A DNA stretch of 64,000 nt from an uncultured Veillonellaceae bacterium (GCA_963805085.1 CAWDTA010000002.1:1472001-1536000), one strand, 5' to 3'; shown: positions 21,501 to 40,540, counted from the stretch's first letter. Made by a program: numbers and translations. The notes: generated from the sequence alone by a model not told the origin.

Positions 21501-24500
21501 ATTCGCTACAGCTATGGTAGCATAGCCGGGGGCAAGGTGCAGAAAATTGATATTGATTTATGTGACGAGCAAGGGAATGTTTGTGTACGAATGAAGAAGT
21601 GTTTATTAAGAGTAACGGAAATTGATATGATTTCAGTAGGATCCATGGCAACGCATGGTACTTTGTTGCTCTACCCTTGCTGGCAAGAGCAAACCGTTAC
21701 CGAAAAATTTTTAGCCACTGATTATATTCAACATTTAGTGATGCTCTTGGAGCTAGGTGAAGTTTCCCAAGAAAGTATGGAAAACCACATGAGTGGGGTA
21801 AGCTGTCTTGCTTTACAATCTAAGCAGGAAAACATAGGGGAACGATTCCAGAACTATGCCGTTCAGGTTTTTGAGGAAATTCAGCGTATCATCAAAGAGC
21901 AACCAAAGGGTAAGGTGTTGATCCAAATAGTCATCCCCGCTCAAGCCGAACAACAACTCTTCTCAGGAATTGCTGGAATGTTGAGAACCGCCCGGTTTGA
22001 GAATCCAAAACTAATAGGCCAGTTGATTGAAGTGGAACAGGGAGAAGATATCGAAGAGATTGTAGAAAAACTGAAGGAGAGTAGCCGCTGCCTTTTTGAT
22101 GATCATATCCGTTATGAAAAGGATAAACGCTATGTTATCGACTGGAGAGAATTTGAAAATTTTCAGAAAGCCATGCCAATTCCTTGGAAAAACCAGGGGG
22201 TCTATTTAATTACTGGAGGTGCTGGCGGTCTGGGATATATAGTTGCTAAAGAGATAGCGAATAAAGTTAAAGATGTGACAATGATTTTCACAGGCCGGTC
22301 TTTGCTCAATAAGGACAAGCAAGTTCGAATTAAGGAATTGGAAGCCTTAGGTGCCCGGATCGAATACAAAAAGGTCGATGTGACCCATAAGCAGGCTGTT
22401 GTCGATTTGATCCAAAACATCCAAGAGAACTTCGGTGGTCTCAATGGTATCATTCATAGCGCGGGTATCATCCACGATAACTTTATTCTTAAGAAAACCA
22501 AAGAAGAATTGCAAGCGGTTATGGCGGCAAAAGTTACTGGACTGGTAAATTTGGATCAGGCAAGCAAGGATATAAGCCTTGATTTCTTAGTGCTCTTTTC
22601 ATCTACATCAGGAGTCTTTGGTAATCCAGGACAGGTCGACTATTCCACAGCTAACGCATTTATGGATGCTTATGCTAAGTATCGGAACAGTTTAGTGTCA
22701 TCACAAAAACGTTATGGCAAAACACTCTCAATCAGTTGGCCGCTGTGGAAAGAAGGCGGGATGCGTATTGATGCGGAAGTCGAGAAGATGATAAGGCAAA
22801 GTATGGGAATAGTCGCTATGGAGACAGTAACCGGAATCCAAGCTTTGTATAGAGGTTTAGCCTCCGGACGAGATCATATGATGGTATTGGAAGGGGATAT
22901 TCCAAAGATTAGAGAGCAACTATTGAAACCAAAAGTTTATTCGTATCAGGTAGAGCCATCTGTTACACAAGTAGATATAGGCTTGCTTAGAGAAAAGACG
23001 TTGGATCAATTAAAGATACTATTAGGAGAGATCACTAAGTTAAGTGTTAGCAAGATTGATATCGACGAGCCTTTAGAAAACTATGGAATTGATTCGGTTA
23101 TGATTACTCAATTGAATCATAAATTTGCCGGTGTGTTCGGAGAATTATCAAAAACGTTACTTTACGAATATCAGACTCTAGGATCATTAGCTGAGTATTT
23201 TATTGAGGAAAAGTCACACGAATGTATGCTGTGGACCGGACTTGCGAAACAGGTACGATTAAAAACGGAAGCATCAAAAAAACCGGAAATGTCTTCGGTA
23301 AAATCGCGCATCGATAGTGCATTTTCTGTTGTGTTGGATTCTTTAAAACCACAACAGAAAAAAGCGCGTAGTTGTTCTTATATAAGTTTAGATAATAATC
23401 CCAGGGAGCCTATTGCTATCATAGGTATGAGCGGTCGTTATCCTCAGGCAAGGAATTTAAAAGAGTATTGGGATAATTTACAGTTAGGCAAAGATTGTAT
23501 TACCGAAATACCTAGAGAACGTTGGACGTTAGAAGGATTCTATCATCCTGATCCCAAAGAAGCGGTGGCTCATAACAAAAGCTATAGCAAATGGGGTGGT
23601 TTTGTAGAAAAATTTTCCGATTTTGATCCGCTCTTTTTCAACATTTCACCTCGAGAAGCAATCAATATTGATCCTCAGGAACGATTGTTTATTGAGTCAT
23701 GTTGGGAAGTGTTGGAGGATGGAGCCTACACTAAGGAGCAACTTAGAGCTAAATTTAATAGCCAGGTTGGTGTTTTCGCAGGAATTACTAAAACAGGTTT
23801 TGATTTGTACGGTCCCGATTTATGGCGACAAGGTGAAAAAATTTTGCCTCACACTTCATTCAGTTCAGTGGCTAATCGGGTTTCATATTTACTGAACTTG
23901 CAAGGCCCTAGTATGACAATTGATACAATGTGTTCTGCATCATTGACTGCCATTCATGAAGCATGTGAGCATCTTTACCAAAGAGAATGTGAGATGGCAA
24001 TCGCTGGCGGTGTAAATTTGTATCTTCATCCTGCAAATTATAGCGCATTATGTGCGCAGAGAATGTTGTCTGTAGATGGAAAATGCAAAAGTTTTGGATA
24101 TGGTGCTAATGGATTTGTACCTGGTGAGGGAGTGGGATGTGTTCTGTTGAAACGATTGTCTCAAGCAGTCAAGGATCAGGATCATATTTACGCTGTTATT
24201 CGGGGCAGTAGCATTAATCATGGCGGGAAAACCAACGGCTATACGGTACCAAATCCGGCAGCTCAAAGAGACCTCATTCGATCGACACTGAATAAAGCTG
24301 GAGTCAATGCCCGGACAATTAGTTATGTTGAAGCTCATGGGACGGGGACAGAACTTGGCGATCCAATCGAAATTACCGGACTTACGCAGGCATTTGGAAC
24401 TGATACCAAAGATACACAATTTTGTGCCATTGGTTCAGTAAAATCAAATATCGGTCATTTGGAAGCAGCGGCAGGGGTTGCCGGATTAACTAAGATTGTA

Positions 24501-27500
24501 CTACAAATGAAACACCAAAAGATTGTTCCGAGTTTGCACGCCAAAGAATTGAACCATAATATTAATTTTGTTAAAACTCCTTTTGTGGTTCAGCAGGAAC
24601 TTGCGGAATGGAAACGACCAGTAGTCGAGATAGAAGGAGAGAGCAAAGAATATCCTAGAATCGCCAGTATTTCAGCTTTTGGCGCAGGAGGTTCAAATGC
24701 TCATGCAGTGATTGAAGAATACATTGCTAATAACCAAGCATCATCTCAGATTGCGATTACCATTCAGAACCCAGCAATTATTATATTGTCGGCTAAAGAA
24801 GAAGAGCGGCTCTGTGAGCAGGTGTTGCAATTATTGGCTATTATTGAGGAGCAGCAGTTTACTGATGAGAGCCTAGCAGATATGGCGTACACTCTTCAGG
24901 TGGGTCGTGAAGCCATGGAAGAACGCTTAGGCTTAATAGTGGGATCAATCAAAGAGCTTAAAGAGAAACTAAATAATTTTGTGGAAAACCAGGATGGCAT
25001 TAGAAATTTATATCGGGGGCAAGTCAAACGCAATAAGGAAACGCTAAGCGTTTTCGGGGCGGATGAAGATATGGCGAAAATGATTGATTCCTGGATAGCG
25101 AAAAGGAAATATGCGAAGCTTTTAGATCTTTGGGTAAAAGGTTTGAATTTTGATTGGGATAAGTTATACAGTGACGTTAAACCTCGTCGAATAAGTTTAC
25201 CGACCTATCCTTTTGCTCGGGAAAAGTATTGGCTACCTAAAATTAATAGCCAGTCTGCTGATAGAGTTTCAGCTTCAGCAGCAGTATTTTACATTCATCC
25301 GCTAGTACATCAGAATACCTCTGATTTTTCAGTACAACGGTTTAGTTCGATATTTACTGGCCAAGAATTCTTTTTAGCTGATCATATAGTAAAAGGTCAG
25401 CGGGTACTGCCTGGGGTAGCCTATCTTGAAATAGCTCGAGCTGCAGTGGAACAGGCTTCTGGTGCTATGAATAAAGGACAGGCTGGAGTTTGTTTGAAAA
25501 ATGTTGTTTGGGCTAGACCTATTGTTGTAGAACAACAGCCAGTGCAGGTAAATATCAGACTTTTTCAAAAAGAGAATGGTAATATTGTCTACGAAATTTA
25601 TAGTGATTGTGAAATGGCTGATGCTGAAACAGAAACTGTAATATACAGCCAAGGTAATGCAATGCTAAGTACGACTTCCAAAGTTCCAACTTGCGATCTT
25701 CAAGCCTTGCAGGCTGAGTGTAGCCAGTTGAGCTTGTCGCGTGATCAATGTTATGAAGCATTTAGAGCAATAGGAATTGAATATGGTCAGGGACACCAAG
25801 GAATTTCAAAGTTGTATGTAGGATCAGGTCAGGTGTTGGCAAAGTTATCCTTGCCGTCTTCAGTATTCGATACTTTAGGTCAATTTGTTCTGCATCCCAG
25901 TTTGATGGATTCGGCTCTGCAAGCCTCAATTGGTTTAAATTTGAATATGGATGAGTCAATGCTAGTTAGTAATAATTCTCCTAAACTTTTCCTTCCTTTT
26001 GCTTTGGAGCAACTTGAAATTTTTAATAAATGTACTTCCGATATGTGGGCACTAATTCGATACAGTAATGACAGCGTTGCTGAAAATAAGGTAAAAAAAT
26101 TGGATATTGATTTGATTGATAATACTGGAATAGAATGTGTGCGAATGAAGGGAGTATCGTTAAGAGTATTGGAAGGCGAAGTCAAGTCGGTAGAGAGTCC
26201 GGCAAATTTTGACACACTAATATTTCAACCTTGCTGGCACGAACAAGATGTTGACGGGAAGTACAAGACGTATCGCTTTAGACAACATCTTGTGATACTT
26301 TGCGAATTGCCGGAAACTTCGCGAAAAAGAATTGAATGTGAAATTGGAGGGGGAATACAATGCCTTATTTTGCAATCAGGGAAGAAAAATATAGCGGAAA
26401 GGTTTCAAGACTATGCTGTTGAAGTGCTTGGACAAATCCAAAACATTATCAAAGAAAAACCTGAGGGCAAAGTATTGATCCAGATAGGAGTTCCTAGTCA
26501 AGGAGAGCAGCAACTTCTTACAGGACTCTCCGGACTTTTGAAAACAGCTCAGCTTGAAAATCCTAAATTAATGGGACAAATGATTGAAATAGAAGATATA
26601 GAAAGAATTGTAGAAAATCTGAAAGAGAACAGTAATACTCCCCTAGATAAGAGGATTAGGTATCAGGATGGAAAACGGTTGGTTGGTGGTTGGAGTGAAT
26701 TAGAAGCAATTAACGCTCCAATGTTAATTCCATGGAAGGATCGGGGAATTTATTTAATTACCGGTGGTCTTGGTGGTCTTGGATATATCTTTTCTAAGGA
26801 GATTGCTGGAACGGTGAAGGAGAGCATTTTAATTCTCACAGGTCGGTCTCCGCTTAATGAGGCTAAACAGGTTCAACTTAAGGAACTGCAGACAATGGGT
26901 GTTCGGATACTATACAAGCAAGTCGATATTACGCAAAAAAATGCGGTTATTGACTTGATTCAAGGTATCCTTAATGAATTTGGAAGTCTCAATGGTATCA
27001 TCCATAGCGCGGGGGTGATTCATGACAATTTCATTCTCAAAAAAACAAAAGATGAACTGCAAATGGTTCTGGCTCCTAAGGTTACCGGACTAGTAAATTT
27101 GGATCAGGCCAGCAAGGACATAAGCCTAGATTTTTTCATTTTATTTTCATCTATTGCAGGAGCATTAGGTAATTCAGGTCAAGCTGATTATTCCGCCGCT
27201 AACGCATTTATGGACGCTTATGCAGGATATCGTAATTGTTTGGTGGCCACGAATGAGCGATATGGTCACACCCTAGCAATAGATTGGCCGTTATGGAAAA
27301 ACGGTGGGATGCATGTTAACGAACAAACCAAGAAGATGATGCAAAATATGGGCATATTTGCTATACCGACATCAGTCGGTATTAGAACTTTGTATCAATG
27401 TTTAGCTGTCAATACAGATAATGTGATGATGATTGGAGGAAATATTAACCTCTTAGAGAAAAAAATATATCAAATAATAAACCCAGTTATGCAAAAATTT

Positions 27501-30419
27501 GCAAAAACTTCAACCCAATCCGTTTTTACGAAACAAAGCGAATTACCTAAAGAAGAAAATTTGAAGGAAAAGATGATTTTTTATTTAAAACAAGTCATTT
27601 CCAATACGCTTAAAATGGATCCGGAACGGATGGATATAAATGTAAGTCTGAGCAAATACGGTTTAGATTCTATTGTGGTTCTAGAAATTAACAACAGATT
27701 GGAAAAATATTTTGACGAGCTTTCGAAAACGCTATTTTTTGAATATAGCACGATTAACGAGCTAGCTAATTATTTTATAAAATCGCATAAGGAAGCTCTC
27801 GTAAAACTCTTTGAGCCTAAAGAAATAGATCAAACAGAAAACACATTGCAGCAAAAGAATCAACATTTGTCTAACATGCCGGATCAGTCATATGAAAAAA
27901 ACAGCCGAACAAAGTATTTTGCTATACAACAGGATAATAAAGACACTGAGTCAATGCCAGTTAATCAAAGAATACAAGCACAGTCGGCAGATAATATTCA
28001 GGAGAGTCTAGTTAATATAATGGAAAAAAACGATTTTAGCTTGGATAATATTGTTAATTTTTTATATGATAAAAATATTATTTCTATAAATAACGATACC
28101 AGAGGTATTATCGCGCCTGTGTTATCAGAACCTTTGTTGATTCATGAAGATGAGCTGAAAAATAAACCGGAGGTTGCAACTATTATTAAAGGTATTGATG
28201 ATGTAAATTCGCCAGTAGGATATGAACGATTGCTGTATCCGTATTTTTTCATAACTTCAGATAAAAACAAATATTTGCGACTCATTATGGATCAATCAAA
28301 TAAACTTATTTTCCCATATACAGTGTCAGATGAAGGTATTTATCAAGAACTTCTCCGTTATAGTCAAAAAATTGGTTATCAATTACTAATAGTTGACTTA
28401 TATAGCGATTGGATTGACTTAAAGCAAACGAGACTCATCCCGCTGGGGGTTTGGCAAAATATTGTTATTAATCAGTTCACACTAGCAGGTAATAAGATGA
28501 GGAAAGTGCGCTATTTAGTGGAGAAATTTAGAAAATCGGGGGAAGTTAGAATTGAAGAATATCATACCGAATTAAATTTACCGTTAGATGAAATGAAAGA
28601 TCTAATGATTAAATGGAGCGAGGATAAAAAAAATGTAATTCACCATTCATTTGTATGTATGGAAGAACTTTTGCGTAAAATGCTCCCTAGTGGACACCGG
28701 GCATTTTTAACCTATCACAATAATAAACTGTGTTCCCTTATAGTAATGGAAAAAATGCAGGATGGAATATTTCTAATGGACCAAGAATTTTATGATGCCA
28801 AAACGGCACCGTTAGGTCATATGGAATATGCAATTGTTAAGATCATTGAACAACTAAAAACAGAGGATGCTCAAATCTTCTCGCTTGGGTTAACCTGGTT
28901 TCCGTTTGCTTTTGAAGATTATCCCCATAAAGATAACGAAGGTTGGGCGTGGCTAAAAGAACAAAATGATAAGAAAACTCTTTTAGCTCAAATCTTTCAC
29001 CAAGGTGAAACAAATTATCAATTTAAAAAGAAGTTTGGTGTCGTAGGTGAACCTGTTTTTGCCTACTTACCTAAAAATTTACCATTTTCCTCATTGTTAA
29101 GCTATTGGACTGTTTTTTATCAAAACTCACTGACTTCTAGCCAACTCATAAAGAAAATAAATCTAATAAATTTATTGGATTTACATGAAAATAAAGAGAA
29201 CGAAAACAGACAAAAATACCACCAAAACAAAGAGGAAAGACGGGAATCTCTTGCTAAAACAGAAAAGTTAGAACAGCTTGATTATAATGACAGCCCGCTT
29301 GATTTACAAACGGATTCTTGGTACTTACTTCAAACTGATGCGGTAAAAAGACATGTTGCTTATTTAAAAACCCAGCCACACTCAATAAACGCAGAAGTAC
29401 TCCACACGATATTTCCATTTAAACATATCATTTTAACGGCACAAGGACGAAGTGCTGAATTGCTTTTTTACCAGGCTTACTCTAAGAAAAAGAAAAAAAT
29501 TGTTACTACCATTCCCTGGACTACGACCCTTATGCATCAACTACAAAATGGTTTTGATGTTGTTGAATTACCTCATTCGTCAGTTAAACAAGCACAATCA
29601 GCTCATTTATTTAAGGGAGAAATGGATTTAGAAGCATTAACGGAACAATTACAGCTAGACAGTAACAACATTGCTTTTGCTGGCTTAGAAGTATTAAGTA
29701 ATGCTAGCGGCGGTAACCCAGTTAGGCTTTCTCACATACAATTGCTCAAAACAATACTACAACAATACCAAGTACCTCTTGTGTTGGATGCTTCTAGAAT
29801 TGTACGCAATGCATTCTTAATAAAAGAATATGAAGAGGGCTTTAAACAAAATACTATTTGGGATATTGTCAAACTGACTTTCGAACAAGCCGATCATGTT
29901 GTAACTAGTTTGACTAAGGATTTTGCGGTTTCAGTAGGAGGATTAATTGCTACAAATGATGATCAATTAGCAACCGACATTCGAAATATTCAATCTAGTC
30001 AGGAGCAAGCAATAACTGTAGATATGAAAAATATGATTATACAAGCATTAGCAGAAAAAGAAACTATTATTGATCTTATAACCAGACAAATGGCATTTAC
30101 TAAACATTTGCAAGATATGCTTGTGAAAATTCGGGTGCCAATATTACAACCTGCCTATGGCCATGCTATTGTCATTGATGTATCCCAGCTCGCAAATGGA
30201 GAAACCAATGCGCAAAAGAAAGAACAGTTTCTCAGAAATTTATTTATTGAAACAGGTATTCGAGGTGGTATTCATCAGGTTGGTAAACAGAAAAATACAA
30301 TACTTGATCAGTGCATTCGTTTGGCAATTCCATTGGGTTTAACAGAGGAAGATGAACATATTATTTATGATAGGCTAAATAGTTTCTTTAAACAAAACAT
30401 GGAAGTACTTATTAACTAA
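15558..30419 (+). CDS. Trans-AT polyketide synthase 2: DH-ACP-ACP-KR-KS-DH-KR-ACP-KS-DH-KR-ACP-DUF2156-PLP cysteine lyase (SH)
   Basis: DH HRIHGVRTLPG, HVVQGKRVLPG, HIVKGQRVLPG; GLDS/GIDS ACPs; DTMCS KS; C-terminal tryptophanase-fold motifs DLQTDS, QGRSAE, DASR, SLTKD, GHA, RLAIP. Confidence 0.93.
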   Translation: MLEKGKTFSQKIRHSNYIVRDHRIHGVRTLPGVTLLDMIYRLSAGYIGTQAIELKQVLFKQPVVTSENFDRDVLVTFIPRNSHWEIKVVSQKIKNDVILDSAYDENMECLLFQRENTELDKNFDVKSFISNAKTQWDMDSIYRFGRQVNIQHFEFMKTLGTVYLNDDAEIMHLHLSELAEKYRESFYAHPAFLDGSTLAGLPFQLTGSDQEIFRGIPYIPFLIQRFCIYRPLPKSIYTYTKKPEFIIKNKENPPDIFTFDITIFNELGEILVKFEKMMVKRIREPHLIKKLIEADNNRLSQEKTEFVGESSLKKETTQAWIETQREQPTDTDAKHVIQSYLQKEIGQVLKKNPGDVDINSGFYELGLDSTNLLGLVKVLEEKLGEQLYPTLLFEYSTIQRLSDYLSEDYANAFSCLETSRNKAERKTRDQANSDSRQIIVSYLQQEIGRVLKKNSNEIDVNSGFYELGLDSTNLLSLVKQLEEKLGEPLYPTLLFEYSTIERLAEYLLSNYDKLFLDFHNKENNDKDNRSLQNSNNANMVFLEPGWYKQNIMNQQAVTQKHQHIVILFSDEENVKSAIQQSMCTADVIILTSREENIVCRFEDKFIQLLQLIQERLGQKTPVELLLQIVADSDSEGKYVYALAGMLKTAYLENPKIHSQIIAIDKLQSQSISAIVQILQKESLAFEQDVLEICYRGEGLHRYIRQLNEKEPSANTLISYKENGVYVITGGLGGLGILIADHIANQVKSKLVLIGRSQLDSTKEEKIRQLRQKGAEVLYLQADISKKTEIVNVFNVIKNKFGFITGIFHNAGVLKDQVIIKKNLLEIQDVFRPKVHGLWYLDEATQDEEMDFFIVFSSLSAITGNLGQADYATANAFMDVFATFRQDRVKEGKRFGKTISINWPLWSDGGMQVDDRFEEMMAGSFGMKPLPAQLGLKALDTLLSQNRTRNIVFYGDKSKMRSYLGSYIHATQEDAQISMKRSTYVDAVKKTDDQIFQSEYRSNDIAIIGLSGRYPMADSIREFYQNLREGRDCISNFPKNRWKNYQFGFDVEQFYKYGGFLDHIDEFDPLFFNIAPRQAEMMDPQARLFLETVWEACEDAGFYQDRTQNCYPSSSDKSVGVFAGVFWNHYELFGAEMTQRGIPTSLGISPASIPNMVSYCLNFHGPSMAVDTMCSSALTAIHLACESIRHHQCHYAIAGGVNLVTHPHKFIFLKQAHFLSSDGRCRSFGQGGDGYVPGEGVGAVLLTTLERAQQEGYPIYGIIKGSALNHVGKTSGVTVPDPIAQSEVIADALKIADVDPRSISYIEAHGTGTALGDPIEIQGLKRAFNQWTQDRQYCAIGSSKSNIGHLEAAAGIGGLTKLLLQLKHQEIFPSLHSEQLNPYISFDNTPFYIEHNLKKWNRPEVELDGVKLRYPRRAGLSSFGANGSNAHIIVEEYISQKTKKNSITINEINLALVPLSAKNRDCLKVYAQKLLDFLKDVPEIRGSSNEQLARIVEGEIIQILAKILSVKENDIDPVQDLSEFNADYIQMASFHQNLQERYGLDIDKNIIFQVQSIRSLTSQFIQQYQPELEQHFFRSKDTSDGTKIRHHIDIVDLAYTLQVGREAMDCRVVFNVKTINELIEKLELFIEGKVNIDNCFQGLEKRDRDLITTITYDEDMKEVLDKWIDKGKKNKLAELWVKGLKIDWDKLYGDIRPHRINLPTYPFAREHYWISAVEDKVKLSGNITTCETALIHPLLQQNTSDFSEQRFSSTFTGQEFFLMDHVVQGKRVLPGVAFLEMARAAVDQAVGSLSARPIGIHLKNVVWAQPVIVKEQAVQVNIGLYPEDTGEVAYEIYSESECGEDRVIYSQGRAMLSSVLKMPVLDLKSLQAKCSQHVFNSNQCYEGFRTMGVQYDPAYQGIEKVYVGQEQVLAKISLSVGDNNMKNRFVLHPILLDAAIQASLYLTVPIPFSSSTSLKQFLPVTLEELETISECPADMWALIRYSYGSIAGGKVQKIDIDLCDEQGNVCVRMKKCLLRVTEIDMISVGSMATHGTLLLYPCWQEQTVTEKFLATDYIQHLVMLLELGEVSQESMENHMSGVSCLALQSKQENIGERFQNYAVQVFEEIQRIIKEQPKGKVLIQIVIPAQAEQQLFSGIAGMLRTARFENPKLIGQLIEVEQGEDIEEIVEKLKESSRCLFDDHIRYEKDKRYVIDWREFENFQKAMPIPWKNQGVYLITGGAGGLGYIVAKEIANKVKDVTMIFTGRSLLNKDKQVRIKELEALGARIEYKKVDVTHKQAVVDLIQNIQENFGGLNGIIHSAGIIHDNFILKKTKEELQAVMAAKVTGLVNLDQASKDISLDFLVLFSSTSGVFGNPGQVDYSTANAFMDAYAKYRNSLVSSQKRYGKTLSISWPLWKEGGMRIDAEVEKMIRQSMGIVAMETVTGIQALYRGLASGRDHMMVLEGDIPKIREQLLKPKVYSYQVEPSVTQVDIGLLREKTLDQLKILLGEITKLSVSKIDIDEPLENYGIDSVMITQLNHKFAGVFGELSKTLLYEYQTLGSLAEYFIEEKSHECMLWTGLAKQVRLKTEASKKPEMSSVKSRIDSAFSVVLDSLKPQQKKARSCSYISLDNNPREPIAIIGMSGRYPQARNLKEYWDNLQLGKDCITEIPRERWTLEGFYHPDPKEAVAHNKSYSKWGGFVEKFSDFDPLFFNISPREAINIDPQERLFIESCWEVLEDGAYTKEQLRAKFNSQVGVFAGITKTGFDLYGPDLWRQGEKILPHTSFSSVANRVSYLLNLQGPSMTIDTMCSASLTAIHEACEHLYQRECEMAIAGGVNLYLHPANYSALCAQRMLSVDGKCKSFGYGANGFVPGEGVGCVLLKRLSQAVKDQDHIYAVIRGSSINHGGKTNGYTVPNPAAQRDLIRSTLNKAGVNARTISYVEAHGTGTELGDPIEITGLTQAFGTDTKDTQFCAIGSVKSNIGHLEAAAGVAGLTKIVLQMKHQKIVPSLHAKELNHNINFVKTPFVVQQELAEWKRPVVEIEGESKEYPRIASISAFGAGGSNAHAVIEEYIANNQASSQIAITIQNPAIIILSAKEEERLCEQVLQLLAIIEEQQFTDESLADMAYTLQVGREAMEERLGLIVGSIKELKEKLNNFVENQDGIRNLYRGQVKRNKETLSVFGADEDMAKMIDSWIAKRKYAKLLDLWVKGLNFDWDKLYSDVKPRRISLPTYPFAREKYWLPKINSQSADRVSASAAVFYIHPLVHQNTSDFSVQRFSSIFTGQEFFLADHIVKGQRVLPGVAYLEIARAAVEQASGAMNKGQAGVCLKNVVWARPIVVEQQPVQVNIRLFQKENGNIVYEIYSDCEMADAETETVIYSQGNAMLSTTSKVPTCDLQALQAECSQLSLSRDQCYEAFRAIGIEYGQGHQGISKLYVGSGQVLAKLSLPSSVFDTLGQFVLHPSLMDSALQASIGLNLNMDESMLVSNNSPKLFLPFALEQLEIFNKCTSDMWALIRYSNDSVAENKVKKLDIDLIDNTGIECVRMKGVSLRVLEGEVKSVESPANFDTLIFQPCWHEQDVDGKYKTYRFRQHLVILCELPETSRKRIECEIGGGIQCLILQSGKKNIAERFQDYAVEVLGQIQNIIKEKPEGKVLIQIGVPSQGEQQLLTGLSGLLKTAQLENPKLMGQMIEIEDIERIVENLKENSNTPLDKRIRYQDGKRLVGGWSELEAINAPMLIPWKDRGIYLITGGLGGLGYIFSKEIAGTVKESILILTGRSPLNEAKQVQLKELQTMGVRILYKQVDITQKNAVIDLIQGILNEFGSLNGIIHSAGVIHDNFILKKTKDELQMVLAPKVTGLVNLDQASKDISLDFFILFSSIAGALGNSGQADYSAANAFMDAYAGYRNCLVATNERYGHTLAIDWPLWKNGGMHVNEQTKKMMQNMGIFAIPTSVGIRTLYQCLAVNTDNVMMIGGNINLLEKKIYQIINPVMQKFAKTSTQSVFTKQSELPKEENLKEKMIFYLKQVISNTLKMDPERMDINVSLSKYGLDSIVVLEINNRLEKYFDELSKTLFFEYSTINELANYFIKSHKEALVKLFEPKEIDQTENTLQQKNQHLSNMPDQSYEKNSRTKYFAIQQDNKDTESMPVNQRIQAQSADNIQESLVNIMEKNDFSLDNIVNFLYDKNIISINNDTRGIIAPVLSEPLLIHEDELKNKPEVATIIKGIDDVNSPVGYERLLYPYFFITSDKNKYLRLIMDQSNKLIFPYTVSDEGIYQELLRYSQKIGYQLLIVDLYSDWIDLKQTRLIPLGVWQNIVINQFTLAGNKMRKVRYLVEKFRKSGEVRIEEYHTELNLPLDEMKDLMIKWSEDKKNVIHHSFVCMEELLRKMLPSGHRAFLTYHNNKLCSLIVMEKMQDGIFLMDQEFYDAKTAPLGHMEYAIVKIIEQLKTEDAQIFSLGLTWFPFAFEDYPHKDNEGWAWLKEQNDKKTLLAQIFHQGETNYQFKKKFGVVGEPVFAYLPKNLPFSSLLSYWTVFYQNSLTSSQLIKKINLINLLDLHENKENENRQKYHQNKEERRESLAKTEKLEQLDYNDSPLDLQTDSWYLLQTDAVKRHVAYLKTQPHSINAEVLHTIFPFKHIILTAQGRSAELLFYQAYSKKKKKIVTTIPWTTTLMHQLQNGFDVVELPHSSVKQAQSAHLFKGEMDLEALTEQLQLDSNNIAFAGLEVLSNASGGNPVRLSHIQLLKTILQQYQVPLVLDASRIVRNAFLIKEYEEGFKQNTIWDIVKLTFEQADHVVTSLTKDFAVSVGGLIATNDDQLATDIRNIQSSQEQAITVDMKNMIIQALAEKETIIDLITRQMAFTKHLQDMLVKIRVPILQPAYGHAIVIDVSQLANGETNAQKKEQFLRNLFIETGIRGGIHQVGKQKNTILDQCIRLAIPLGLTEEDEHIIYDRLNSFFKQNMEVLIN

Positions 30420-30433
30420 GCTTAAGAGTCTTT

Positions 30434-30480
30434 TGCAAAAAGGTAAGGGTAGCCATTTGGTTTGTCCATACCTTTTTGCA
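30434..30480 (+). terminator. Stem-loop after PKS2
   Basis: tgcaaaaaggta...tacctttttgca inverted repeat. Confidence 0.55.
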
Positions 30481-30717
30481 CTTGCATTCTGCAAATAAAG
30501 ATCCGGTCCAATATGGAGAAATATTTCATTTGCTTCCTGCTTTTTCGTAAAATCTTGTACAGTACACCAAGTATATGGCTGTATTATTGTGCCTTTTGGT
30601 CAAAATAATTTGCAAATTAACAGTCGCGAAGTAAGGAAGTCAGAAAGTTTAATGTAAAAAATCAGTTCAGTTACTATCCTTTGGAAATGAACACAAATTA
30701 TTTAAGGGGGAATTTTA

Positions 30718-31860
30718 ATGGGACACATTGCTAACGCCAAAGAAGAGGTCTACATGGCACTGGCTGAACGCTTGAGTAAAAATCCAATGGTAACGTCCGT
30801 AACCGAAGAGATGATTGCAATACTCTACCGGATTTATACCGAAAACGAGGCTATGGTGGGCAGCCGATTTCCTATAGCACCAATGATGTTGGATAAGATT
30901 GCCGAAATAACCAATATGAAAGAAGACGAGCTAAAAAGAATATTGGATGGAATGGCCGATAAAGGATTAGTGCTAGACCTACCCCGCAGGGAAGGTACTT
31001 ACTATCTGCTGGCTCCATCAGTATTTGCTTTCTTCGGGTTTGCTTTCGCACGAGTTGGGGATGGGAGAAACGTGAAGAAAATAACAGAACTCTTCATAAA
31101 AAATATGCAAAATCCTGAAGTGATTAAAGATTTCATGATGGATACTAAGACATTTAAGACATTGGTGTACGAAAAGGTTATACCATATGCAGTGGAAACA
31201 GAGGTTATGCCTTATGAAAGAGCTTCTGACATTATTCGTCAGTCAGGGGGAGGGGCGATTAGCCTTTGTGCGTGTATGCATAGGGCTAGTCACTTGGGTA
31301 AGTCATGTAAAATAAATGCACCCATGGAGAAGTGTATGAGTTTAGGCGAATTTGGGCAATGGTGTGCGCGACGAGGGGGTGGTAAGCCGGCTACTGTGGC
31401 CGAAATGTTACGGTTGTTGGATCAAACTGAAAAATTGGGTTTAGTTCACCAAGTCGACAATGTACTTAATCAACCAGTGTTCATGTGTCACTGTTGTAGC
31501 TGCTGTTGTGAAGTTCTTGATGCATCCAGGCAATCTGGAGTATTAGGTACACACCCCAGCAATTTCATTCCGTCTATTGATCTGAATCGTTGCAAAGGAT
31601 GTGGTGAATGCACTAAAAAATGCCCTATGAATGCCATTAGTATGAGCAGCGTGGGCAACGGGAAAGAAGCACCGGAGCTTAATAAGCAAATGTGCATCGG
31701 TTGTGGTCTATGCGCCACTGCCTGCCCTAATAGTGCCCGGACCATGTTACGCCGATCAGTTTTACATATTTCTCCGGAAACAAAAACAGAACAATTACTT
31801 CGTATTGCTAGAGAAAAGGGTAAAGACATAAAATTGACCTCAGACGATTTTCTCTTTTAG
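30718..31860 (+). CDS. 4Fe-4S ferredoxin-domain protein
   Basis: CKGCGECTKKCP and CIGCGLCATACP; Cys-rich CHCCSCCC. Confidence 0.9.
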   Translation: MGHIANAKEEVYMALAERLSKNPMVTSVTEEMIAILYRIYTENEAMVGSRFPIAPMMLDKIAEITNMKEDELKRILDGMADKGLVLDLPRREGTYYLLAPSVFAFFGFAFARVGDGRNVKKITELFIKNMQNPEVIKDFMMDTKTFKTLVYEKVIPYAVETEVMPYERASDIIRQSGGGAISLCACMHRASHLGKSCKINAPMEKCMSLGEFGQWCARRGGGKPATVAEMLRLLDQTEKLGLVHQVDNVLNQPVFMCHCCSCCCEVLDASRQSGVLGTHPSNFIPSIDLNRCKGCGECTKKCPMNAISMSSVGNGKEAPELNKQMCIGCGLCATACPNSARTMLRRSVLHISPETKTEQLLRIAREKGKDIKLTSDDFLF

Positions 31861-32058
31861 TAATAAGTTAGAATCCTTAACCCACAGGTCTCTTCCTTAA
31901 AGAAAGTTGCACTGAAATCACAAGATGTCAAGTGGAAGTAACCACTATTATTGGGATTGACAAATTATTCAAGTAGGAATAGTATGAAACAGTAAATTAA
32001 TTACAATTAAACCAGTGGGAATACTAAGAATTAAGTCTGCAATATTCCTGAAGGTATA

Positions 32059-33303
32059 GTGTTTATAGGGAGGATGATCGTTTTGAAAGGAATGCTTATA
32101 GAAAATCAGGAGGCAGTTGTTCAGGAGAACTTATGGTCGACAGCTTTTGTTTTTACCATAATGGTGAATTTTCTTGCCTATCTGGGGAATTTTATGTTAC
32201 TGTCAACTTTACCTTTACATGTTTTAAACATTGGGGAAAACAAAATAATGGCGGGGCTAGTATCCGGTATTTATTATTTAACCGGTTTCATAGCTCGTCC
32301 AAAGATTGGAGGTCTGCTAGATCAAAAAGGAAGAAAGTCAATTATGCTTACGAGTCTGACTGTGCTGCTGCTGGCAACGCTCTCTTACAATGCGGTGGCA
32401 TATTCAGTTATTATGTTGCTAATACTGAGAGCGATACACGGAATAAGCTGGAGTGCAACTACCACGTCAGTCAGCACCATAGCCTCCGATCTGATTCCAG
32501 CCAGCCGCAGAACTGAAGGAATGGGCTTTTTTGGAATATCAAACTCAGTTGCTATAGCTCTCGGTCCTGGCTTAGGATTATACGTATTGGAGCATTATAA
32601 TTATATATTACTTTTTCTTCTTTCAGCTTTCTTCATTGTATTAGCATTACTTACCGGTTTCTGGCAAAGGCGCTACCTTAATCAAATAAGTACAGAGCCT
32701 CCACTTATTAAAAAAATTGAACATAAAGCAGGGCAAAAAAACAAGATATTGGTTTTTGAGAAAACAGCGATGTGGCCATCTTTTTTATTTTTTATCGTTA
32801 TGATGACTTACTCTACCATAGGAGTCTTCTTACCTGCATATGCGAATGAGAAAGGTATAGAAAATATTGGGATATTTTTTATAATTAGTTCACTGGCTAC
32901 AATATTTGTCAGGCTAACATTTGGTCGATTTGCTGACCGACATGGAGGCTCCAAAATAGTGGTTTCCGGCATGCTTTTATTAGCAATTGCCCTGAAGCTG
33001 TTGTCTGTAGCTCCTTCGTTGCCAATATTCCTTATCGTTGCTGTAATTTATGGCATTGGTTTCGGTGTAGTTCAGCCAACCCTAAATGCATTAGTTATAT
33101 CTTTTGCACCTGCGGAAAGACGAGGAATGGCTAATGCAACATATCTATGTGCAATGGACTTAGGAATAATGGTTGGCTCTGTTCTTTGGGGCAGTGTGGC
33201 ACAAGTGTTTGGATTTATTTACATATACAACATTTCAACTATTCTCATTATTTTATCTCTTATAATGTATTTAGTAGCTTTCAGAGGTAGCTCAAACGAA
33301 TAG
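32059..33303 (+). CDS. MFS transporter (likely product export)
   Basis: About 12 hydrophobic segments; GGLLDQKGRK and GRFADRHG MFS motifs. Confidence 0.92.
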   Translation: MFIGRMIVLKGMLIENQEAVVQENLWSTAFVFTIMVNFLAYLGNFMLLSTLPLHVLNIGENKIMAGLVSGIYYLTGFIARPKIGGLLDQKGRKSIMLTSLTVLLLATLSYNAVAYSVIMLLILRAIHGISWSATTTSVSTIASDLIPASRRTEGMGFFGISNSVAIALGPGLGLYVLEHYNYILLFLLSAFFIVLALLTGFWQRRYLNQISTEPPLIKKIEHKAGQKNKILVFEKTAMWPSFLFFIVMMTYSTIGVFLPAYANEKGIENIGIFFIISSLATIFVRLTFGRFADRHGGSKIVVSGMLLLAIALKLLSVAPSLPIFLIVAVIYGIGFGVVQPTLNALVISFAPAERRGMANATYLCAMDLGIMVGSVLWGSVAQVFGFIYIYNISTILIILSLIMYLVAFRGSSNE

Positions 33304-33427
33304 TAAACCATTGTTTACAGACTATTTGTTAAGCATCATTAAGAATCGCAGGATTATCACCCTAGAAAATTACAATTTATCATTTGCGTAAGAGCCGCAA
33401 GTGGGCCAACAAAAATGGCTTTATATA

Positions 33428-33476
33428 ATAATGTTAGTCATGATATGATGCAGTATCATATCATGACTAACATTAT
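33428..33476. repeat. 22-bp perfect inverted repeat
   Basis: ataatgttagtcatgatatgat-gcagt-atcatatcatgactaacattat. Confidence 0.85.
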
Positions 33477-33585
33477 AATTATGAAGAACATTCATTTTTG
33501 CGATTTTATTAGGTTTACCACGCTAGGATGAGCAGAATTATTTATGATAGGCTGAATGACTTTTTTAAACAAAGTATGGAGGTAA

Positions 33586-36459
33586 TTGTTAATCATGTCT
33601 AGACAAAATTTAAAGGATCTAGTAGCACTATTAACAGAAGAACAACAACAATCTTTATACGAAGCAGTTACTCAAACGAGGACTGAGAAGTTAGAATCTG
33701 AGGAGACAAAAAAGATTCAACAGTGTGATATTGCTATTATTGGGTTGAATGGACGGTATCCACAGGCAGATAATCACTATGAGTTTTGGCTGAAACTTAA
33801 ACAAGGAACAAAATTTATCAAGAAAACTCTGGAGCACCAATGCTATTGTGATGAACACCATGATTCTTCAACTAGTGATTCTTTATATCTTCATAAAAAG
33901 TGCTATAAATTAGGCACTTTTTTAAAAGCGCATGATACATTTGATGCATCTTTTTTTGATTTACCTTCTGATGAAATATCTATTATGGATCCTCGAGAGT
34001 GTCTTGCGTTAGAAACAGTGTGGTCTTGTATTGAAGATGCAGGTTATACTTTTGAAGAATTAGGCAATTCAGTAGGAATATTTAATGGGATAACACCTAG
34101 TAAATATCAAATTAAAAACCATTCCCATATATTAAATGATAGGATAGCCGATTTTTTTAATTTTCAAGGTCCAGCTTTAATTGTAAATGCGGGTGCTTGT
34201 TCTTCTTTATCGGCGATTCACTTGGCAGGCCAAAGCTTAATGCGAAAAGAATGCCAAGCGGCATTAGTTATTGGAGCAAATATTCTTGATCCGAACCTAT
34301 GCACTGATCCTTTTGATATAGACGATGACCGGGTGTTAGCTGAAGGAGTTGTATCCATTTTACTGAAACCACTACAACAGGCTTTACTAGACAAAGATCA
34401 TATTTATGCAATTGTTAATTCATGTAATATTTGTCATGAAAAAAATACGTCAAAGTTTATGGTCTCCAATCCAAAACAACAAGCTAAACTTATTCAAGCT
34501 AATTTTGAAAAAGCAGGAATACATCCAGCGACCATAAGTTGTATGGAAGCGGCGGCCAGTGGAACATCTGTAGGTGATGTTGCTGAAATTGAAGGTTTAA
34601 TATTAGCGTTTAATCAGTTCATTAATGAAAAGCAATTTTGTCCGATTGGGTCAGTACAATCTATTATTGGACATGGTCAAGCCGTATCTACATTACTACA
34701 ATTAACAAAAGTATTGCTGCAGTTTAAATCGAAAAGTTTTATTCCGTTAATTAATTTACCAGAAATAGAACCAAATATAAATATAAAAGACTCCCCGTTC
34801 TACTTTCAAACATCAACAACAGAATGGATACCGCCTGTTCTAACGGTTAATAATAAACAGTTTTCAATGCCGCGTCGGGCAATGATATCATCCCTTGATA
34901 ACAGCGGTAACAATGGGCATCTTATTTTGGAAGAACATATTGTAGAGAATACCGAGGAACAAAAATTAGATTCTTATTTTATTCCATTATCGTCCGAAAC
35001 AAACTATCAGCTTCGGCAAACTATCGAAAACTATATTGAATTCATTGAAAGGTATCAAAATCTTGATGCACAATGGGATACTAATTATACTTTGTCCAAT
35101 ATAATGTTTACACTTTGCGTTGGTAGAGTAGTGTTTTCTGAACGAGTAGTATTTATAACTGATAATCTTAAAACATTAGTTAAACAATTTCGACAATTTT
35201 TAAACAGTGAAATATCTGCCGATATTATTTCAACTGCTAATGTGGATGCTAATACGATGACTGAAAACTGTGAGGAGGCTCAGGTTCAAAGCTATTTGAA
35301 CAATCATTCATGGCATAAATTAGCAAAATTATGGGTACAAGGCTCAAATATTTCTTGGAAAACGTTTTTTCATTCATATAATGTTTATCGTATATCCTTA
35401 CCAACATATTGTTTTCAAAAACAACTTTACCCTGTTCCTAAAGCAATGTATTCTGCAAAGGAAGAAAAATATATAGCCAATAAGGAAAATAGCAATAAAT
35501 CTTACACAGAGAAGAGAATTAATTTAGAACCAGATATAAATAGAAACAACTGGTCTCAGTTCCCTGAGCTGATACACCTTAATCAGGTTTCTCAAGGACG
35601 ACCTGTATTTTGGCTTCATGGAGGGGGCGGTGGAGTTGAAGGATATCAAAGTATTGCCCAGAAAAGTCAGCGCCCTTTCTATGGTATACAAGCACGAGGG
35701 TGGATGAACGGTGGTTCTCCTTTAGATGGAATTCAATCAATGGCTTCTTATTACGTTCATATAATTCAATCAGTACAATCAGAGGGACCATATGATTTAG
35801 GCGGTTTTTCTCTGGGGGGAGCTCTAGCATATGAAATTACACGCCAAATGCAAGAGTTGGGACAAAATGTCAATACGATTATTATGCTGGATTCACCAGA
35901 TAGTATTGGCATGAGGAAAGTAAATTCATCTCCTAAAAATTTGATTTTACAAGCAGTTAACATGGAGCTTATGCCTATGATCCGGCAAGAACCGGAAAAA
36001 GCGGCACAAATAATAATCCATCAAGAGGAAGTGGATTTGAATGCAGATGATGAAGTTTTTTTGCAGCAAGTAGTTATACTTGCCAAAGCACGTGGATTAA
36101 CCAAAACGGAAGCTCTATTGCGCGAGCGGATTCAAAATAATGTAAAAGTTCAGCAGGCATATAAACTCAATCACTTTAGCATTTTACCGTTAACCTACCC
36201 TCAAACAGTAACTTGCTATTATTTTCGCAATAAGAACGGAGTCTTCTTTGGTGAATTTGTAGCAAATGCAAAAGACAAAATTTTACTTGATCATACAAAA
36301 TATTGGGGGGAATGGGAACAACAACTTCCCAATTTTCACATAATAGATGTAGATTCTTCTAGTCACATGATGTTGTTGCTTGATCCTAAAACTTGTAATA
36401 AAATCTCCACATTCTGCAAAAAACTTTATTCGTTAGATGAGATGGTAATTATTCAGTAA
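33586..36459 (+). CDS. Non-elongating KS0 - thioesterase
   Basis: KS keeps ACSS but HGTGT is replaced by AASGT; TE FPELIHLN...GFSLGG...SSHMM. Confidence 0.88.
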   Translation: MLIMSRQNLKDLVALLTEEQQQSLYEAVTQTRTEKLESEETKKIQQCDIAIIGLNGRYPQADNHYEFWLKLKQGTKFIKKTLEHQCYCDEHHDSSTSDSLYLHKKCYKLGTFLKAHDTFDASFFDLPSDEISIMDPRECLALETVWSCIEDAGYTFEELGNSVGIFNGITPSKYQIKNHSHILNDRIADFFNFQGPALIVNAGACSSLSAIHLAGQSLMRKECQAALVIGANILDPNLCTDPFDIDDDRVLAEGVVSILLKPLQQALLDKDHIYAIVNSCNICHEKNTSKFMVSNPKQQAKLIQANFEKAGIHPATISCMEAAASGTSVGDVAEIEGLILAFNQFINEKQFCPIGSVQSIIGHGQAVSTLLQLTKVLLQFKSKSFIPLINLPEIEPNINIKDSPFYFQTSTTEWIPPVLTVNNKQFSMPRRAMISSLDNSGNNGHLILEEHIVENTEEQKLDSYFIPLSSETNYQLRQTIENYIEFIERYQNLDAQWDTNYTLSNIMFTLCVGRVVFSERVVFITDNLKTLVKQFRQFLNSEISADIISTANVDANTMTENCEEAQVQSYLNNHSWHKLAKLWVQGSNISWKTFFHSYNVYRISLPTYCFQKQLYPVPKAMYSAKEEKYIANKENSNKSYTEKRINLEPDINRNNWSQFPELIHLNQVSQGRPVFWLHGGGGGVEGYQSIAQKSQRPFYGIQARGWMNGGSPLDGIQSMASYYVHIIQSVQSEGPYDLGGFSLGGALAYEITRQMQELGQNVNTIIMLDSPDSIGMRKVNSSPKNLILQAVNMELMPMIRQEPEKAAQIIIHQEEVDLNADDEVFLQQVVILAKARGLTKTEALLRERIQNNVKVQQAYKLNHFSILPLTYPQTVTCYYFRNKNGVFFGEFVANAKDKILLDHTKYWGEWEQQLPNFHIIDVDSSSHMMLLLDPKTCNKISTFCKKLYSLDEMVIIQ

Positions 36460-36477
36460 TGCTCTTTTGAATACCAC

Positions 36478-36689: not shown

Positions 36690-37770
36690 CAAAGAACAAA
36701 ATTATATCTATTCTAACTTTGGTATCAGTCACTCAATATTCGTAAACGTTTCATAAAATTCATGAATATACGGACAGTTACTACAAAGCTTAAAAGTAAT
36801 GCTTCTAGCCGACTTTACTAGTTTTCCTGCAATCTTCAAGAGCTTTAGCCGAATCGTATCTGCACGAAACTTTTTCATTTTTTCAGGCAGACATAACCGA
36901 CGAAACTAGTTGAAAAGATTGTATGCCAACATACAAAACTGTAAGCGATTCGAATTAACAAGCATAGAATGGCTACTCATCACACTAAAACCAAATTCAT
37001 TTTTGGATTCCTTAATGAAATTTTCCATTCGTCCGCGATTGCGGTAAAACTTTACTATTTCCTGTGGTGACAGTGCCATATTAGCCACGATGAATGTATG
37101 GCGAAAAGTTATTCAGGACGTTTCTCTATTTTGCAGATAACGCGTCTGGAGTAATCCCAACTTCCTGCCTGATATGAAAATTCGCCATAAAGAGCTATAA
37201 ATCTATCGGGATGAAGAGCTGCCTTTGCAGTTACTTCTTCTTCCAAATAGAACGCCTTTTCTTGAAGTAAGTGATTACCTTTGAGCCGTATTGCATAAGA
37301 AAAGCCATTGGATTCCGCTTGTGTGTAAAGTTCTGGCGTAGCAAAACCGCTGTCTCCACGGAGAAACAGCTGAACCTCTGGATATTGGCTAAGATATTCA
37401 TCAAGAAGCGGTTGCAAAAAATTCTGTACACCCGTTGAAGAATAGGTACTACCCTTGCGAAGCTCGATTTTTAACAGATCACCTGTAAAGCCATCATAAC
37501 AAACTAGTGGATGATAGCCATGAGCCGAGTAATGATAGTTAAAAGCTTCGCCTTCCTGCATTTCGTAGGTTAGAAGAAGTGTTGAATCCAAATCCAAAAG
37601 AATACTTGGAGGCTGGGCAATAGAATAAATTCGTTTGCGTAAATCACATGTAATTTCATGAAGTTGCTCCAGTGTTATTTCGTCCAAACGAGATCCAAAG
37701 CGTGAAATAGTAGGCTGAGAAGCAAGTCGACTTTTACCAAGACAAGTTGTGAAAACAGGATCACTAGAAA
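36690..37770 (-). pseudogene. IS1380-family transposase, frameshifted and truncated
   Basis: LDLDST, HGYHPL, RGDSGF, YAIRLK, YRNRGRMENFIKE split across ORFs 37109-37687 and 36906-37088. Confidence 0.88.
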
Positions 37771-37771
37771 G

Positions 37772-40081: not shown

Positions 40082-40101
40082 ACTTGACGGGTAGCATATC
40101 A

Positions 40102-40520: not shown

Positions 40521-40540
40521 ATAGATGGTCAATAGAAATA

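Follow-up and report, generated by a model that had tools for sequence, protein, structure and literature searches.

A large polyketide synthase (PKS) from an uncultured Veillonellaceae bacterium ends in an acyl carrier protein (ACP), a DUF2156 domain and a pyridoxal phosphate (PLP)-dependent lyase, the last two forming what is known as a DUF-SH didomain. By analogy with the leinamycin family, we consider it probable that this didomain is the sulfur-installing end of a small assembly line that lacks built-in acyltransferases (AT-less, or trans-AT), that would start on a methyl ester and that would make a sulfur-containing product of about 11 carbons (~C11). The stretch of DNA that was analyzed, called the window throughout, is 64,000 nucleotides (nt) long (GCA_963805085.1 CAWDTA010000002.1:1472001-1536000), and positions are counted from its first letter. 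An original prediction made for this DNA had reported the ACP-DUF2156-PLP lyase tail in a trans-AT PKS, and our analysis confirmed that observation. The didomain is a member of a known and widespread family that had been flagged by genome mining before, and it is not a new kind of system. What is new here is the setting in which it stands, namely, a cluster that has an ortholog in another family of the same class and whose opening genes suggest a methyl-ester start.

The didomain closes PKS2, a protein of 4953 amino acids (aa) encoded by one uninterrupted open reading frame (ORF) on the forward strand (15558-30419, +). In the last 953 aa, Pfam detected PP-binding (E 1.8e-13), followed by LPG_synthase_C (PF09924, formerly DUF2156; E 9.4e-15, 54.9 bits against a cut-off of 27.5) and then by Beta_elim_lyase (PF01212; E 3.3e-26, 92.7 bits against a cut-off of 27), all above cut-off. 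The DUF domain, which resembles the C-terminal part of MprF, spans 28131-29144 (+), and the SH domain, which has the PLP beta-eliminating lyase fold, spans 29277-30401 (+). All eight motif strings that had been quoted for this region were found by string match in the PKS2 tail at their mapped positions: FTLAGNKMRKVRYLVEKF at 28476-28529 (+), GETNYQFKKKF at 29004-29036 (+), and DLQTDS, QGRSAE, DASR, SLTKD, GHA and RLAIP starting at 29301, 29442, 29787, 29907, 30159 and 30318 (all +). The predicted codon of the PLP lysine (29916-29918) also held up. It encodes Lys603 of the didomain, a residue shared by every sequence in alignments of 12 and of 34 family members. Its counterpart in tyrosine phenol-lyase is the second Lys of SGKKD, which we take to be the PLP lysine K257. 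The predicted start at 28110 was slightly early, lying ~20 nt ahead of position ~28131, where conservation in the N-terminal half of the DUF domain sets in. Among 34 family sequences, residues F123, G127, R134, W169, R197, T201, D224, E226, N302, K306 and K308 of the DUF domain and residues K603, D560, R563, N531, S600 and R737 of the SH domain were invariant, and both window domains carry all of them.

Comparisons with characterized proteins place the two domains in their fold families. The NCBIfam models for tryptophanase (E 4e-52) and tyrosine phenol-lyase (E 1e-42) matched the didomain far under their equivalog cut-offs, and SH is thus a member of this fold family rather than a tryptophanase or a tyrosine phenol-lyase. 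When a profile of 6 family sequences was compared with solved structures, 9cen_A ("Polyketide Synthase Protein") came first (3.2e-70) and tyrosine phenol-lyase scored 2.1e-64. The DUF half of the same profile matched the aminoacyl-phosphatidylglycerol synthases 4v36 (E 5e-5) and 6lv0 (E 6e-5). SH shares its fold family and PLP-binding residues with tyrosine phenol-lyase and tryptophanase (PDB 2ez1, 1ax4); however, those enzymes are free-standing and ~460 aa long, whereas the window's SH is fused behind DUF2156 and falls in a separate clade. Similarly, the DUF domain resembles the C-terminal synthase domain of MprF (PF09924; PDB 4v36, 6lv0), with a Pfam match above cut-off and a family-profile structure match at E ~5e-5, but it lacks the membrane flippase part of that protein, and the MprF equivalog model matched the window only at E 1e-3.

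Next to these matches stands the position of the didomain in its own family. A search of 1.84 billion representatives returned 987 proteins at E <= 1e-3 and 163 at E <= 1e-30. Among the stored proteins with a near full-length SH segment (n = 139), a DUF domain was detected in 110, of which 30 carry a tail of ~300 to 360 aa behind SH (the tailed class), 67 extend beyond that (the continuing proteins) and 13 stop within 40 aa (the ending proteins). Examples of the tailed class, P0105 and P0099, read KS-ACP-ACP-DUF-SH-hydrolase, where KS is ketosynthase. We built a tree of 73 SH-type sequences that kept 26 of the 67 continuing, 16 of the 30 tailed, 14 of the 29 DUF-less and all 13 of the ending proteins and that was rooted on 4 free-standing lyases from relatives. 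In the LG+G4 tree, 65 of the 73 rows fell into one clade (SH-aLRT, a likelihood ratio support, 99), comprising all 55 DUF-linked rows and 10 in which no DUF was detected; outside it were the 4 free lyases and 4 other DUF-less rows. The window's SH belongs to a clade of 23 rows (support 99 under LG+G4 and 100 under PMSF), and its identity to members of its own clade is 35 to 75%. The 16 tailed rows, whose tail is a thioesterase (TE), formed a clade of their own (support 100). Forcing the window in with them cost 183 log-likelihood units (P = 1e-45 in the approximately unbiased [AU] test), for a group that was named after the tree was seen. The structure 9cen_A matches the TE-tailed proteins P0095 and P0087 at 1e-89 and 5e-88, versus ~1e-29 for tyrosine phenol-lyase. 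As a side observation, P0126, P0136, P0138, P0147 and P0150 are proteins of ~900 aa with two tandem tryptophanase-like lyase domains and no DUF, and three of them were included in the tree, where they take a position intermediate between the free lyases and the clade of SH domains embedded in PKSs.

The terminal module 8 of leinamycin biosynthesis is KS-ACP-ACP-DUF-SH-TE (Phillips 2024, PMC7618002), and the SH domains of GnmT, LnmJ and WsmR are described as thiocysteine lyases (Meng 2021, PMC8479088; Phillips 2024, PMC7618002). The Pfam order, the shared invariant residues and the single PKS-embedded SH clade all bear out the claim that the window's didomain is homologous to the leinamycin-family one. 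The narrower label "leinamycin-type" fits the family homology but not the strict type, because SH lies outside the KS-ACP-ACP-DUF-SH-TE clade. Like the leinamycin family (LnmJ, GnmT, WsmR), the window has the order ACP, DUF2156, PLP lyase inside an AT-less PKS, has the invariant PLP Lys, Asp and Arg, and groups with the PKS-embedded SH domains as opposed to the free lyases. It differs in that the didomain is preceded by KS-DH-KR-ACP (DH, dehydratase; KR, ketoreductase) with no tandem ACPs, that there is neither a 3-hydroxy-3-methylglutaryl-coenzyme A (HMG-CoA) synthase cassette nor a nonribosomal peptide synthetase (NRPS), that the TE sits on a separate protein behind a degenerate KS (KS0), and that the host belongs to a class of endospore formers and is not a Streptomyces.

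The distribution of the family was examined with a pattern scan of one genome per species, the patterns being based on a 6-sequence alignment that may under-sample actinobacteria. A didomain relative was encoded in 225 species genomes, and the best 80 of these 225 came from Verrucomicrobia, SAR324, Acidobacteriota, Bacteroidota, Gammaproteobacteria and others, including one Paenibacillus. The original prediction had described DUF-SH as known mainly from actinomycetes; this view did not survive at the level of genomes, since the best 80 of the 225 are all nonactinobacterial and nonleinamycin clusters have been published already. Architectures of the type CP-DUF2156-PLP3-KS are described for Kordia algicida and Lysobacter (Milano 2013, PMC3870968), and of the four similarity groups into which 109 dereplicated DUF-SH clusters have been sorted, three lie beyond the leinamycin family (Meng 2021, PMC8479088). 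In the literature searched, we found no product described for any nonleinamycin DUF-SH cluster. The window resembles these published clusters in having DUF-SH inside a trans-AT PKS of other phyla, followed by a KS, without a characterized product. It differs from most of them in what surrounds the didomain, as its clade has DH-KR ahead and KS0 behind, whereas most others have ACP or KS-ACP ahead and an elongating KS behind.

This difference emerged from a crude domain map of the best 80 loci, made by tblastn with the window's own domains and insensitive to diverged domains. All five loci of the window's clade (L015-L019, from two Verrucomicrobia, SAR324, Solibacteraceae and Paenibacillus) read KS-DH-KR-ACP-DUF-SH-KS-ACP. 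The other 75 loci mostly have only ACP or KS-ACP ahead of the DUF domain, and DH-KR was seen in three of them (L020, L082 and L087). In the KS that follows SH, the HGTGT motif is replaced by AANGS in all five clade loci. Of the remaining 75 loci, 65 have HGTGT at this site and 2 have EGHATGT, and in the last 8 this KS went undetected or was truncated. An HMG-CoA synthase match within 10 kb was present at 5 of the 80 loci, none of them in the window's clade. As judged from domain order and motifs, the window's clade is a distinct DUF-SH variant, with DH-KR in front and KS0 behind, and the KS-DH-KR-ACP-DUF-SH-KS0 architecture supports the addition of sulfur to a plain enoyl-ACP.

Among 41 genomes near the window's own (G000), 13 matched, and the whole didomain was found only in G000 and G039; the other 11 have the lyase half only, at 26 to 31% identity, in frames of 460 to 520 aa. 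G039 belongs to the same class as the window's genome but to another family, and the orthologous cluster that it carries is reported here for the first time. Identities between the two clusters are 71% for a methyltransferase (MT), 66% for DUF-SH, 58% for KS0, 58% for a hydrolase and 34% for a major facilitator superfamily (MFS) transporter. The two PKS genes of G039 are collinear with those of the window and ~two modules longer. A gene for a LoaP-type NusG antiterminator lies ahead of the cluster (L095 7794-8300; 212 bits against a cut-off of 125); no LoaP remnant was found in the window, and NusG-like matches lie elsewhere in its genome. The G039 cluster has no gene for the iron-sulfur (Fe-S) protein of the window's cluster, no TE and no acyltransferase within 170 kb.

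The domain order of the window's synthase was taken from Pfam searches of overlapping pieces (ten for PKS2) and from motif checks. PKS1 (9084-15551, +; 2155 aa) reads ACP0-KS-DH-KR-ACP-KS with a degenerate DH, and PKS2 reads DH-ACP-ACP-KR-KS-(ACP-like segment without the Ser)-DH-KR-ACP-KS-DH-KR-ACP-DUF-SH. The host synthase is AT-less, with no PF00698 match in PKS1, PKS2 or KS0-TE, the protein encoded behind the didomain. Each of the four elongating KS domains has its Cys and HGTGT, and the expected motifs are present in DH2 to DH4, in all four KR domains and in six ACPs. The last extension module, KS-DH-KR-ACP (23406-27773, +), feeds the didomain and has the KS Cys and HGTGT, the DH motifs HxxxGxxxxP and DxxxQ, the KR motif YxxxN and the ACP motif GLDS at PKS2 aa 4035. 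With these intact DH and KR motifs and an order common to all five clade loci and G039, this module should deliver an enoyl-ACP, as had been proposed. The absence of an NRPS and of a beta-branching cassette was likewise borne out: no condensation or adenylation domain was found in any cluster ORF scanned with Pfam, and there is no HMG-CoA synthase in the window, the sole match in the genome being on contig C3.

KS0-TE (33586-36459, +; 957 aa) consists of the degenerate KS (~33727-34758), a linker and a TE (~35599-36408), with no carrier domain between them. We aligned KS0 with the window's four elongating KS domains and with the KS that follows DUF-SH in relatives. It is 58% identical to the KS directly after DUF-SH in G039 and 42 to 46% identical to those of L015-L019, and its HGTGT motif reads AASGT. 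By its residues KS0 is non-elongating, and perhaps it is a scaffold only. The catalytic motifs of the TE are intact, and as KS0-TE contains no ACP, we infer that the TE must take the chain from the ACP ahead of DUF-SH.

At the other end of the cluster, two genes ahead of PKS1 point to the way in which the chain would be started. They encode an alpha/beta hydrolase of 262 aa (7453-8241, +; Pfam Abhydrolase_1/6), a candidate Art9-like methyl-ester esterase, and a class I S-adenosylmethionine (SAM)-dependent MT of 273 aa (8254-9075, +; Pfam Methyltransf_11/25), a candidate Art28-like malonyl-ACP O-methyltransferase. In the aurantinin pathway of Bacillus subtilis, Art28, encoded by an 822-bp gene, is a malonyl-ACP O-methyltransferase that acts on the N-terminal ACP of Art10, the first aurantinin PKS, and Art9 is a BioH-like esterase that strips the methyl ester at the end; active Art28 homologs are reported from Bacillus cereus, Paenibacillus, Brevibacillus, Thermoactinomyces and Clostridium papyrosolvens (Li 2021, PMC8302727). 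The MT gene of the window is 822 bp long, equal to art28. Its homologs at 58 to 73% identity are named from Bacillus, Paenibacillus, Brevibacillus and Clostridium, that is, from four of the five genera with tested Art28 homologs (all but Thermoactinomyces); they include a 273-aa cluster from the Bacillus subtilis group, and one homolog, P0283, is an MT-ACP fusion. The hydrolase has GHSMG, Asp and His motifs (a Ser-Asp-His triad), and its orthologs in two further genomes, G080 and G098, are 53% identical.

The MT is rare: of 201 genomes of the class, 4 encode it, and in a phylum sample of 401 genomes, the window's own is the only one. Each of the four class genomes has the MT gene immediately ahead of a PKS gene that begins with ACP-KS. 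The GINS carrier motif is conserved in the loading ACP of the three that were checked (window, G039 and G080). The hydrolase gene directly precedes the MT gene in three of the four (window, G080 and G098) and lies elsewhere in the cluster of G039. In the 48 kb of G080 that was examined, there was no match to the window's DUF-SH part, though the hydrolase-MT-PKS order is as in the window. Because the MT adjoins an ACP-KS start with no DUF-SH match in the examined DNA of G080, it appears to be tied to the chain start and not to sulfur. When the MT, hydrolase, Fe-S protein and MFS protein were compared by tblastn with the 80 DUF-SH loci, each matched at none of them, in loci that reach only 10 kb upstream, while the window's MT lies 19 kb upstream of the DUF domain. 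In the whole genomes of five other members of the DUF-SH clade, no close MT homolog was found; one of the five had only matches of 27 to 28%, on other contigs.

Taken together, the homologs and gene context make it most likely that the MT/hydrolase pair is an initiation and deprotection system of the Art28/Art9 type and not a sulfur methylase. The likeness lies in a 273-aa class I MT and a BioH-like alpha/beta hydrolase beside a trans-AT PKS with an ACP as its first domain; it is set by gene context and descriptions, and the window's hydrolase differs in having no predicted membrane segment. With a methyl-ester start of this type, the predicted product is a diacid and not a plain polyene. The earlier proposal that sulfur goes onto the terminal enoyl-ACP of a short polyene thus keeps its enoyl-ACP part, which the architecture supports, and loses its plain polyene. 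In the literature searched, we did not find Art28/Art9 initiation combined with a DUF-SH end, and the methyl-ester reading of an MT/hydrolase pair beside DUF-SH, predicted as it is from sequence, is new here.

In the mechanism that we propose, a remote acyltransferase would load malonate on ACP0, and the MT would turn malonyl-ACP0 into its methyl ester, the starter. Four extensions would follow, the first keeping its hydroxyl and the next three giving a conjugated triene. On the model of GnmT, LnmJ and WsmR, the DUF domain would attach L-cysteine or L-thiocysteine through its sulfur to C3 of the 2-enoyl chain held on the ACP, and SH would then cleave the cysteinyl C-S bond by PLP-dependent beta-elimination, leaving -SH or -SSH. 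KS0-TE would release the chain directly from the ACP ahead of DUF-SH, the alpha/beta hydrolase would later remove the methyl group, and the MFS protein would export the product. From four extensions and an inactive first DH, the product would be a ~C11 3-sulfanyl or 3-hydrodisulfanyl 9-hydroxy-4,6-dienedioic acid or a cyclized form of it.

Several observations weigh against this proposal, and they bear on the didomain chemistry, on the start unit and on the integrity of the cluster. Concerning the chemistry, the window's SH and DUF domains are only 24 to 31% and 26 to 32% identical to those of the leinamycin-type (tailed) class, which makes a shifted substrate possible; a single-sequence phmmer search with the window's SH ranks tyrosine phenol-lyase (5.6e-38) above the PKS SH 9cen (1e-31); and the DUF domain itself is only proposed to make the sulfur adduct (Meng 2021, PMC8479088; Phillips 2024, PMC7618002). 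Such distance from the characterized enzymes would suit a didomain that uses another amino-acid-derived nucleophile or whose DUF works as an aminoacyl-tRNA-dependent transferase like its MprF relatives, as would the fold family of DUF, which is one of aminoacyl-tRNA-dependent transferases (PF09924; 4v36, 4v34), and the lack of a nonleinamycin product in the literature searched. However, every clade in the 34-sequence alignment has the invariant residues, the 55 DUF-linked SH domains of the tree all belong to one clade, and a DUF-only profile of the window's clade matched no solved structure significantly (best, 6lv0 at E 0.06; E 0.06 to 0.4 for tRNA-dependent synthases). Furthermore, leinamycin-type and other didomains are described as highly homologous, with the same chemistry expected (Meng 2021, PMC8479088). 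Of the alternatives considered, we give this one the least credence. Concerning the start unit, the best NCBIfam match of the MT is BioC (42 bits, below cut-off), the hydrolase matches BioH weakly (38.4 bits against a cut-off of 207) and has no transmembrane stretch (no hydrophobic stretch above a Kyte-Doolittle value of 1.37), unlike Art9 as described, and the putative link to Art28 rests on homolog names and gene context. The MT could instead be an S-methyltransferase like GnmP that caps the thiol or hydropersulfide as a methyl sulfide or disulfide, with the hydrolase as an unrelated tailoring or release enzyme. GnmP is a stand-alone SAM-dependent MT of a DUF-SH cluster whose class is not predictable from sequence (Meng 2021, PMC8479088), and the MT is kept at 71% identity in the DUF-SH cluster of G039. 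This alternative is unlikely, though it is the one we take most seriously, given that the hydrolase-MT-(ACP-KS...) cassette also occurs in G080 and G098, with no DUF-SH match in the 48 kb of G080, that the MT always adjoins a gene beginning with a loading ACP and is ACP-fused in P0283, that no close homolog of it was found in the five other genomes of the DUF-SH clade, and that the genera holding its near homologs include four of the five with shown Art28-type activity.

The remaining points concern the integrity of the cluster. KS0 has Ala in the column of the canonical Cys and a Cys at the next position, it lacks 14 aligned residues, and no ACP stands ahead of the TE. The first DH (PKS1, 11355-12227) reads LDYAGKG for HxxxGxxxxP and QxxxQ for DxxxQ, in which Tyr replaces the catalytic His, Ala the Pro of the motif and Gln the Asp, whereas the first DH of the related G080 synthase is canonical, with its His kept; the window's domain is probably inactive, and without the catalytic His the hydroxyl is probably kept. 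An ACP-like segment between a KS and a linker (20049-20237; PKS2 aa ~1498-1560) has Tyr for the phosphopantetheine Ser (FNADY), and as it is missing from the collinear G039 synthase, it looks like the scar of a module loss or recombination. No acyltransferase gene lies within 360 kb; none of the six PF00698 matches in the genome falls in the window, and the closest is ~365 kb off, next to another trans-AT cluster. Adding the adjoining transposase genes, the cluster may have undergone partial decay, and in the extreme it would be a decaying or silent relic that no longer makes a sulfur product. The 11-kb transposase block directly downstream, with one truncated gene, the absence of LoaP, unlike in G039, and an Fe-S gene between DUF-SH and KS0 where G039 has none would agree with that. 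On the other hand, the frames of 2155, 4953 and 957 aa are all uninterrupted, and the checked catalytic motifs are intact in the four elongating KS domains, DH2 to DH4, all KR domains, six ACPs, DUF, SH and TE. The KS0 of G039 has Ser in the Cys column and a Cys at +1 and is likewise not followed by an ACP, nor by a TE, so that the shifted Cys and absent ACP are lineage features and not fresh damage. G039 and G080 also have no acyltransferase near the cluster (those of G039 are 170 kb and 930 kb away), and this cluster family appears to rely on an acyltransferase encoded elsewhere. We therefore hold the relic to be improbable, slightly more so than S-methylation. The same features of KS0 allow one bolder variant, since a KS0 with no canonical Cys and no ACP after it, in both the window and G039, means that release could occur by persulfide attack. 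KS-DH-KR-ACP-DUF-SH-KS0 would then be a portable enoyl-to-beta-hydropersulfide module, and the persulfide, by attacking the thioester, would release a small, methyl-ester-protected diacid bearing a 1,2-dithiolan-3-one (the ring present in leinamycin's warhead), made by a lineage of anaerobic spore formers. If true, a methyl-ester start and a persulfide end would bring two cryptic protecting and activating logics together in one minimal pathway, but we rate this variant as a long shot, a little behind the relic and just ahead of a different didomain chemistry. Our preferred reading remains the methyl-ester-started line in which DUF-SH installs sulfur on an enoyl chain.

The cluster is a row of seven co-directional genes (7453-36459). 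Besides those described above, it contains genes for the MFS transporter (32059-33303, +; PF07690, E 8e-51), a likely exporter, and for the Fe-S protein (30718-31860, +; 380 aa), which has a Cys-rich N-terminal part and two 4Fe-4S motifs in its C-terminal part. Pfam matched Fer4 in the C-terminal part only, and no Pfam family matched residues 1 to 285. The protein has 808 homologs; the best 120 of the 808 are 53 to 63% identical and are named mostly from anaerobic Firmicutes (Peptococcaceae, the Desulfotomaculum group, Pelotomaculum and Sporomusa). This widespread family has no assigned function. A role as a persulfide-handling partner was considered and rejected because the gene is absent from the G039 cluster (where the sole match, of 26%, is to another ferredoxin domain), the family is large and general, and the composition differs; the gene is probably a passenger. 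Third-position GC content (GC3) is 0.27 in DUF-SH, 0.26 in KS0-TE, 0.35 in the upstream PKS modules and 0.405 in the Fe-S gene, a pattern consistent with DUF-SH-KS0 having evolved as a single unit that an insertion later divided. The coding strand of 30300-36460 showed no terminator-like site, and an Rfam search of the whole window showed no riboswitch or leader near the cluster.

Directly downstream lies a block rich in insertion sequences (IS; 37109-47138, ~11 kb of transposase genes) with the domains DDE_Tnp_1_4 (truncated, 192 aa), DDE_Tnp_1, Mutator and DUF772/DDE_Tnp_1_6 and two ORFs (427 and 295 aa) that have no Pfam match. The 1 kb ahead of the hydrolase gene (6452-7452) holds no ORF of at least 60 aa. 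Farther away, a flavin mononucleotide (FMN) riboswitch (62407-62534; 117 bits) precedes the substrate-specific component of an energy-coupling factor (ECF) transporter (62631-63245), presumably a riboflavin importer. PKS genes are abundant in the genome (on contigs C2:1053-1136 kb and C3:157-253 kb), and the KS of the last module has copies of 76 to 79% identity in other clusters (C2:1129606, C2:1134082, C3:161453, C3:222125 and C3:238171), which suggests recent exchange of modules between clusters. No Spo0A was detected in the window's own genome (83% complete); it is present in all five relatives tested, including one of the same genus, which supports a Firmicute (Bacillota) origin. Among sequencing runs, no RNA run was listed, and the shares of 0.06 to 0.12 of the window's words in four metagenome runs have no bearing on expression or habitat.

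To our knowledge, no assembly-line unit other than DUF-SH equips a polyketide with a thiol or an intact hydropersulfide, and all tested examples that we know of come from large leinamycin-type hybrids of Streptomyces. The cluster described here is far smaller than those systems, with four extensions, no NRPS and no beta-branching. Its didomain should act on a plain enoyl-ACP, and the unproven role of the DUF domain would thus be easier to test in vitro, which gives the cluster moderate value as a minimal test system. The pairing of the didomain with a non-elongating KS is specific to the clade and suggests a module that could be transferred to engineer sulfur-containing polyketides. If the apparent join of DUF-SH with Art28/Art9-type initiation is real, two logics that were both described recently would be combined in a new way, and the product probably represents a new small sulfur metabolite from anaerobic Firmicutes.

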